Source of the DNA: Candidatus Micrarchaeota archaeon
GTDB lineage: Archaea; Micrarchaeota; Micrarchaeia; Burarchaeales; JACRGF01
Assembly: GCA_016212395.1 (NCBI GenBank)
Contig: JACRGF010000039.1
Span: 1-57,346, forward strand
Direction of reading: 5' to 3'
DNA length: 57,346 bases
Each line of letters opens with the position of its first letter. The first letter of the stretch is position 1. The notes below the pieces were generated by a model. It was not told where the DNA came from and did not search any database. It saw nothing but the letters and a program-made list of their open reading frames with translations. This document shows positions 50,981 to 51,128 of the stretch, in pieces. A program made the translations under genes and the position numbers.

Positions 50981-51128
50981 TGGACCCGACGAGAAATTCA
51001 TAAATCCTTTTTTTCTTTTGGAAGATCATAAGAGACTTTTCTTTTTTTCTAAAAAAGAAAAGGATCTTATTTTGAACTCGTGGCCTCCTCCTTGCAAAGG
51101 AGGCGCTCTACCCCTGAGCTACGGGCCC
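50981..51128 (-). tRNA. tRNA-Ala(UGC) in the 16S-23S spacer with a 76-nt insertion in the T-loop (about 50995-51070); no encoded CCA
   Basis: The reverse complement reads GGGCCCG TA GCTC AGGGGTA GAGC G CCTCC TTTGCAA GGAGG AGGCC ACGAG TTCAAA[76 nt]T CTCGT CGGGTCC A. After removal it folds as a 72-nt cloverleaf. The acceptor stem has one G-U pair. Confidence 0.8.

Follow-up and report, generated by a model that had tools for sequence, protein, structure and literature searches.

T-loop introns at tRNA position 59/60 have been described in the phylum Micrarchaeota, where Candidatus Micrarchaeum acidiphilum ARMAN-2 carries them in pre-tRNA-Cys(GCA) and pre-tRNA-Pro(GGG) (Fujishima et al. 2011, PMC3239211). 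[quoted passage not shown] The 59/60 intron of ARMAN-2 pre-tRNA-Pro(GGG) has the strict form of the motif, and the ARMAN-2 epsilon2 EndA, whose structure is available as 4FZ2 (PMC3488258), cleaved both the canonical intron and the relaxed 59/60 intron of pre-tRNA-Cys in vitro (PMC3239211). A second precedent is found in the Thermoproteales, for which transposed non-canonical tRNA introns have been described (Fujishima et al. 2010, Mol Biol Evol, cited in PMC3239211).

The DNA analyzed here, a stretch of 57,346 nt that we refer to as the window, belongs to a Micrarchaeota draft genome of 1.37 Mb in 67 contigs (89% complete, 47% G+C). We conclude with high confidence that its 16S-23S spacer contains a functional tRNA-Ala(UGC) gene, the only copy found, with a 76-nt BHB intron at position 59/60. 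To our knowledge, the textbook euryarchaeal spacer tRNA-Ala genes are uninterrupted. Our gene resembles them in its location between SSU and LSU, its anticodon UGC, its G3:U70 pair and its A73, and differs from them in that splicing is required, both here and in at least 13 other Micrarchaeia.

A spacer tRNA-Ala(UGC) gene interrupted in its T-loop

All of the gene lies on the minus strand. The 5' exon (51071..51128, 58 nt, tRNA positions 1-59), identified from the sequence and with Rfam and ARAGORN, comprises the 5' strand of the acceptor stem, the D arm, the anticodon arm with UGC, the 5' strand of the T stem and the T-loop UUCAAA. It is separated by the A/T-rich 76-nt intron (50995..51070), whose exact boundaries agree with same-site introns in 13 other genomes, from a 3' exon of 14 nt (50981..50994, tRNA positions 60-73), which was recognized from its sequence and from compensatory changes with the 5' exon. 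The 3' exon supplies U60, the T-stem 3' strand CUCGU, the acceptor 3' strand CGGGUCC with U70, and the discriminator A73; CCA is absent from the gene sequence. When the exons are joined, they form a 72-nt cloverleaf with anticodon UGC, A73 and G3:U70, the alanine identity pair, and at the predicted spliced junction the T-loop UUCAAA directly abuts UCUCG (UCUCGUCGGGUCCA). The initial annotation had proposed precisely this arrangement of two pieces, 76-nt insert and 72-nt UGC cloverleaf, and its coordinates (51071-51128 and 50981-50994) were exact on the minus strand. Rfam places the gene between the SSU 3' end (~51345) and the LSU 5' end (50694) on the same strand. A split or permuted tRNA gene was also considered and was rejected because both pieces are collinear within 148 nt of one strand.

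Standard searches do not recover this gene. ARAGORN returned zero tRNA calls on the raw window, and with its intron option it found only 20 tRNA genes in the raw genome, the spacer tRNA-Ala(UGC) not being among them; the Rfam tRNA model matched the 5' piece only (51073-51128, 35.5 bits). Once the insert had been removed in silico, ARAGORN called a 72-nt tRNA-Ala(tgc). We scanned for further 59/60 inserts by demanding 5/5 pairs in the T stem and 4/4 pairs between T-loop positions 54-57 and the insert, splicing each candidate and submitting the product to ARAGORN. As a control, the reversed, non-complemented genome gave two calls, each of which required an extra invented intron; given this clean result, the tRNA-Ala(UGC) match is not a chance one. 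The strict scan identified at least 16 distinct tRNA genes of the genome with strict 59/60 introns, and several more cases, also with D-loop or other inserts, were recognized by eye, making 59/60 the commonest intron site in the genome. T-loop introns are the norm in this lineage and not a rarity. The initial annotation had regarded them as rare and known mostly from the Thermoproteales, a view that does not hold in light of these genes and of the 59/60 introns already published for the micrarchaeote ARMAN-2 (PMC3239211).

No second, intact Ala(UGC) gene, which together with the lack of a BHB-compatible fold would have led the initial annotation to suspect a disrupted pseudogene here, was found in the 89%-complete assembly by ARAGORN, by Infernal or by a pattern scan for the UGC anticodon arm and D arm. 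Related genomes yielded 14 further tRNA-Ala(UGC) genes, 13 of which are interrupted exactly at 59/60 by introns of 20-150 nt. These 13 represent families f2, f6, f7, f9 and f12 (one from a different order, the remaining four from the order of this genome but outside its own family), and six of them additionally contain a canonical 37/38 intron. A location in the SSU-LSU spacer was confirmed with Rfam for all 11 interrupted relatives that were checked; the single uninterrupted gene (genome G100) has no rRNA match in its surrounding 3-kb locus. The 59/60 position in the spacer tRNA-Ala, which is found in at least two orders and at least five families, is old.

Base pairs that span the split have undergone compensatory changes at 5:68, 6:67, 49:65 and 52:62. 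At 5:68 this genome has C-G against U-A in most relatives, 6:67 is U-A in G012, 49:65 is A-U here and G-C elsewhere, and 52:62 is U-A in family f12, while G3:U70 is invariant among the compared tRNA-Ala(UGC) genes. We take the exon covariation and the conserved layout, both read from the compared sequences, as the signature of a spliced, selected gene. The same comparison bears on whether the insert could be an assembly artefact of a metagenome bin, as might be suspected of a 67-contig draft: independent assemblies of 13 other genomes carry an insert at the identical site. A self-splicing group I or group II intron was also considered, and one paper reportedly describes group I introns in archaea, with mention of Micrarchaeota. 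At 76 nt, however, the insert is far too short for either class, and an Rfam search of the intron with E up to 10 returned only chance-level hits of microRNA type. We consider the likelihood of an artefact or a self-splicing intron to be negligible.

Directly 5' of the tRNA lies a 62-nt leader element (51133-51194 of the window, minus strand), in which a copy of tRNA nt 1-15 is followed by between one and three small hairpins, by nt 1-11 in antisense and by a short spacer. The antisense segment pairs with the first copy, and both covary between loci. The element also precedes three other tRNA genes of this genome (C41:5090-5141, C54:23634-23700 and C62:2646-2765), and a pattern search of 29 genomes of the order found it only in this genome, at these four tRNA genes. 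No BHB splice register fits it when tried by hand, and the leader element is separate from the intron.

The repeated segment does raise the question of which copy is the 5' exon. If the true exon were the upstream copy of nt 1-15 (51190-51176), the 62 nt extending to 51114 would be an intron in the D-loop region and the gene would contain two introns. Such a layout would account for a 15-mer (a 19-mer with the leader) that is present twice, 62 nt apart; the upstream copy lies where relatives begin their tRNA, as judged by the distance from a conserved spacer motif, and D-loop introns are known elsewhere in the genome. Hand testing of all splice registers inside the 15-nt repeat, however, showed that a self-complementary 4-mer is needed, and only GGCC and AGCU qualify, both without flanking helices and bulges. 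The upstream copy instead pairs with the antisense segment that follows it to form a hairpin, and a pattern search of 28 further genomes from the order did not recover the element. We regard the two-intron layout as highly improbable, and the mature product would be identical under either reading.

The rRNA genes on either side are expanded. The SSU gene (~51345-56716, minus strand) spans ~5.4 kb versus 1.48 kb for the model, with its last 120 nt lying ~760 nt past the end of the main Rfam match, and the LSU gene (45806-50694, minus strand) spans 4.9 kb versus 2.99 kb for the model, so that many inserts have to be removed. Two oligo-T tracts were noted between the 16S and 23S genes: a T6 tract inside the intron (51045-51050, minus strand), and a hairpin followed by T7 after the tRNA (50947-50975, minus strand). 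Oligo-T tracts can terminate archaeal transcription. The T6 and T7 tracts are awkward inside an rRNA operon, and we counted them against the intron reading.

The splice junctions and the processing enzymes

The initial annotation had called for the prediction of a BHB at the junctions, and a compatible fold was obtained. Its outer helix is the T stem itself (ACGAG/CUCGU). In the central 4-bp helix, T-loop positions 54-57 (UUCA, the exon strand H1, 51073..51076, minus strand, in the unconstrained minimum free energy [MFE] fold) pair perfectly with intron nt 71-74 (UGAA, the strand H2, 51000-50997), after which come the last two intron nucleotides (UU, 50996-50995), so that H2 and these two nucleotides occupy 50995..51000 on the minus strand. 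The 5' bulge is formed by A58, A59 and intron A1 (AA|A, 51072-51070, minus strand), and the 3' bulge by the last two intron nucleotides and U60 (UU|U). Paired probabilities are 0.02-0.04 for A58 and A59 and 0.02-0.08 for the 3' bulge. With the splice sites placed in the bulges AA|A and UU|U, the intron falls at position 59/60.

In the unconstrained fold of 161 nt, which has a z of -4.35 versus shuffles, the acceptor stem, the T stem, the central helix and the 3' bulge of 3 nt were all kept. Ensemble pair probabilities at 37 C were 0.84-0.97 for the T stem and 0.31-0.38 for the central helix. The 5' bulge of the MFE fold has 2 nt and not 3, which is the relaxed form of the motif, because intron A1 pairs into the lower stem of the hairpin module described below. 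A strict 3-4-3 hBHBh' form, in which h' is composed of UAA/UUA and AUCC/GGAU, was calculated at -44.7 kcal/mol versus -52.7 for the MFE fold and is thus 8 kcal/mol less stable. We weighed this difference, the 2-nt bulge and the modest central-helix probability against the intron reading. As modeled, the strict and the relaxed junction both lie inside the published range of the epsilon2 enzyme type. Of the 14 interrupted tRNA-Ala(UGC) genes, counting the one in this genome, 7 have a central helix with 4/4 pairs and 7 have one with 3/4.

The sole tRNA-intron endonuclease gene of the genome (locus L021:1192-2370, minus strand) encodes an EndA of 392 aa, whose alignment with the three-unit epsilon2 enzyme from ARMAN-2 extends over the full length (PDB 4FZ2, E = 2e-138). 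Its nearest genomic relatives (59-77% identity) are nearly all titled Candidatus Micrarchaeota or Micrarchaeia. The RtcB ligase is encoded on contig C24 (509.7 bits), and the RNase P RNA is present at full model length (71.8 bits, E = 3e-20). Taking together the BHB, the sole Ala(UGC) copy, the conservation in 13 genomes with compensatory changes and the epsilon2 endonuclease, we agree with the initial annotation that the rRNA-spacer tRNA has a 59/60 intron and depends on splicing.

The rtcB gene (C24:360-1695, minus strand) contains an insert of its own, a stop-containing, frame-shifting stretch of 31 nt between the conserved residues GGVGY and DINCG. Folded by hand, this insert is BHB-like, with a central helix GGUU/GACU and bulges AU|A and AA|G followed by a hairpin, suggesting that the mRNA of the ligase itself probably needs splicing. 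The interruption of rtcB was counted against the intron reading as well.

A hairpin module within and outside tRNA introns

The first 59 nt of the intron (51012..51070, minus strand) correspond to a conserved hairpin module, which we defined by an alignment (A1) and a covariance model (R1) that scores 65.5 bits at this site. Its covarying lower stem, 5-6 bp long across the copies and 6 bp in this intron, leads through a UC/UC internal loop that never varies into a pyrimidine/purine upper stem of 10 bp, after which comes CCAAAAGAAA. A BLAST search of the genome with the intron revealed two paralogues, both at 59/60 (on contigs C1 and C60). The C1 paralogue, in tRNA-Leu(UAG), is 95% identical over a 73-nt match that takes in the T-arm as well as intron nt 1-63, and 94% identical over the 63 intron nt alone; the host tRNA of the C60 paralogue also has a D-loop intron. 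Homologous 59/60 introns occur in the tRNA-Ala(UGC) genes of two relatives (G003 and G011), and four further genomes of the same order have homologous 59/60 introns in genes for His, Arg (three anticodons), Gly, Thr, Asp and Ala(GGC).

In the alignment of 14 module copies, 96.3% of cells are paired, and 7 of the 16 pairs have changed on both sides (31 cells). None of 500 shuffles reached the observed pairing or covariation score, a figure that overstates significance since the module copies are related. Better evidence is provided by slid controls, which gave 56-66% pairing on the same alignment, and by the four different lower-stem sequences. A C/D-box guide role for the intron was rejected, as no C box/D box pair was seen by eye.

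The covariance model matched 57 of 151 sampled Micrarchaeia genomes, giving ~385 hits in all and up to 31 copies per genome. When the best hit in each of 30 genomes was examined, ~14 lay directly 3' of a T-loop, and others lay directly after an intact tRNA 3' end (G004 and G133) or in intergenic DNA. One of these copies (L151, G004:C18) begins with the base immediately 3' of an intact tRNA that we assigned by eye to Val(GAC), another (L155, G133:C5) comes after an intact tRNA-Ala(UGC), and a third (L154, G075:C1, ~128399-128453) is flanked on both sides by a 15-nt direct repeat that looks like a target-site duplication. In the examples examined from the same order, the 5' edge of the module lies at the 59/60 splice site; in two genomes from other parts of the class, it lies at the tRNA 3' end. 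Hits in trailers and intergenic DNA show that the module is not restricted to introns. It could be a small mobile element that persists at sites from which splicing or trimming removes it; alternatively, it could be an RNA that performs a function itself. The more ambitious proposal, that Micrarchaeia as a lineage share it as a mobile or functional RNA element, which makes or renews T-loop introns by landing at tRNA processing sites, is one that we put forward tentatively and consider somewhat unlikely; if it were true, intron gain would be tied to a defined, trackable element.

Mobility of the module would also lend itself to a less favorable view of the locus, in which the tRNA-Ala(UGC) gene was killed by a hairpin element that inserted into its T-loop. 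The first 59 nt of the insert are indeed a repeated module that other Micrarchaeia carry in tRNA 3' trailers and intergenic DNA, and the G075 copy has its flanking 15-nt direct repeats. Insertion alone, however, would not be expected to provide an exact UGAA complement to T-loop positions 54-57 along with correctly placed bulges, nor would a dead gene show the same interrupted layout in 13 other genomes, where the two exons have also changed in a compensatory manner. The assembly offers no other Ala(UGC) gene that was found, and at least 16 other tRNA genes would have to be dead too. We therefore judge a pseudogene to be very unlikely and retain the interpretation of a functional gene with a spliced intron.

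Hairpins of a related style were seen in the rRNA. The first 64 nt of an ORF-less 16S insert (55163-55283, minus strand) are 94% identical to two sites of the genome, one inside the 37/38 intron of a tRNA-Thr(UGU) gene called by ARAGORN (C54:833-896) and the other beside a tRNA-Ser(GGA) gene, a putative tRNA context (C38:64721-64782). There are ~20 weaker copies of this cassette in the genome, several of which overlap intron-containing tRNA genes predicted by ARAGORN, and hairpin cassettes appear to be common to rRNA and tRNA inserts. Homology of the tRNA-Ala intron to this 16S insert was rejected, the BLAST search with the intron having found the C1 and C60 paralogues only. To judge from their sequences, the pyrimidine/purine cassette of the 16S insert differs from the tRNA-Ala intron module, the two being alike in style only.

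Proposed maturation and comparison with known systems

From the gene and enzyme complement we infer the following course of maturation. The three-unit epsilon2 endonuclease would cut both bulges, and RtcB would ligate the exons and probably circularize the intron. RNase P and RNase Z would trim the ends, and CCA, which the gene lacks, would be added. Until splicing the T-loop is expected to be sequestered, and the elbow-dependent steps, which include T-loop modification and probably also end trimming, would therefore most likely come later. In other archaea, pre-16S and pre-23S are cut out of the operon transcript by the splicing endonuclease, which would presumably act on them here as well. 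As for its origin, the first 59 nt of the intron are a copy of the hairpin module, which is also present in 59/60 introns of other tRNA genes here and in relatives, and the content of the intron turns over by replacement or by copying between genes while its position is kept.

Since ARAGORN finds nothing in the window, automated annotation would list tRNA-Ala(UGC) as missing from this genome, and the same probably applies to many Micrarchaeota bins, in which standard tRNA finders would miss such genes. In this Micrarchaeota lineage, the splicing endonuclease and RtcB are needed even for the tRNA inside the rRNA operon. Both enzymes are also expected to act on the many rRNA inserts, and the ribosome and the tRNA supply would then rest on them. 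A conserved position, a changing sequence and a recurrent, covarying module together make a tractable system for studying the gain and replacement of BHB introns.

The closest known system is that of ARMAN-2, which shares with this genome the phylum, the intron position and the enzyme type, as represented by a full-length EndA homologue. Likewise, the junction here can be drawn as a strict hBHBh' or a relaxed motif, and the published enzyme accepts both (PMC3239211). The systems differ in that the host gene here is the rRNA-spacer tRNA-Ala(UGC) and its intron contains a conserved hairpin module; the intron is 76 nt long, compared to 13 nt in the tested Cys substrate of ARMAN-2. Our locus resembles the Thermoproteales in having near-identical intron sequence in non-orthologous tRNAs, here Ala(UGC), Leu(UAG) and a third gene, which implies that intron sequence has been copied between genes. 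It differs from them in lineage and endonuclease type, and in that the introns here share one site and a covarying hairpin that is also found outside introns. The finding is largely expected, adding another case of a phenomenon published for the phylum in 2011. It goes modestly beyond what was known in the conservation of the site across orders in an rRNA-spacer tRNA and in the covarying hairpin module.
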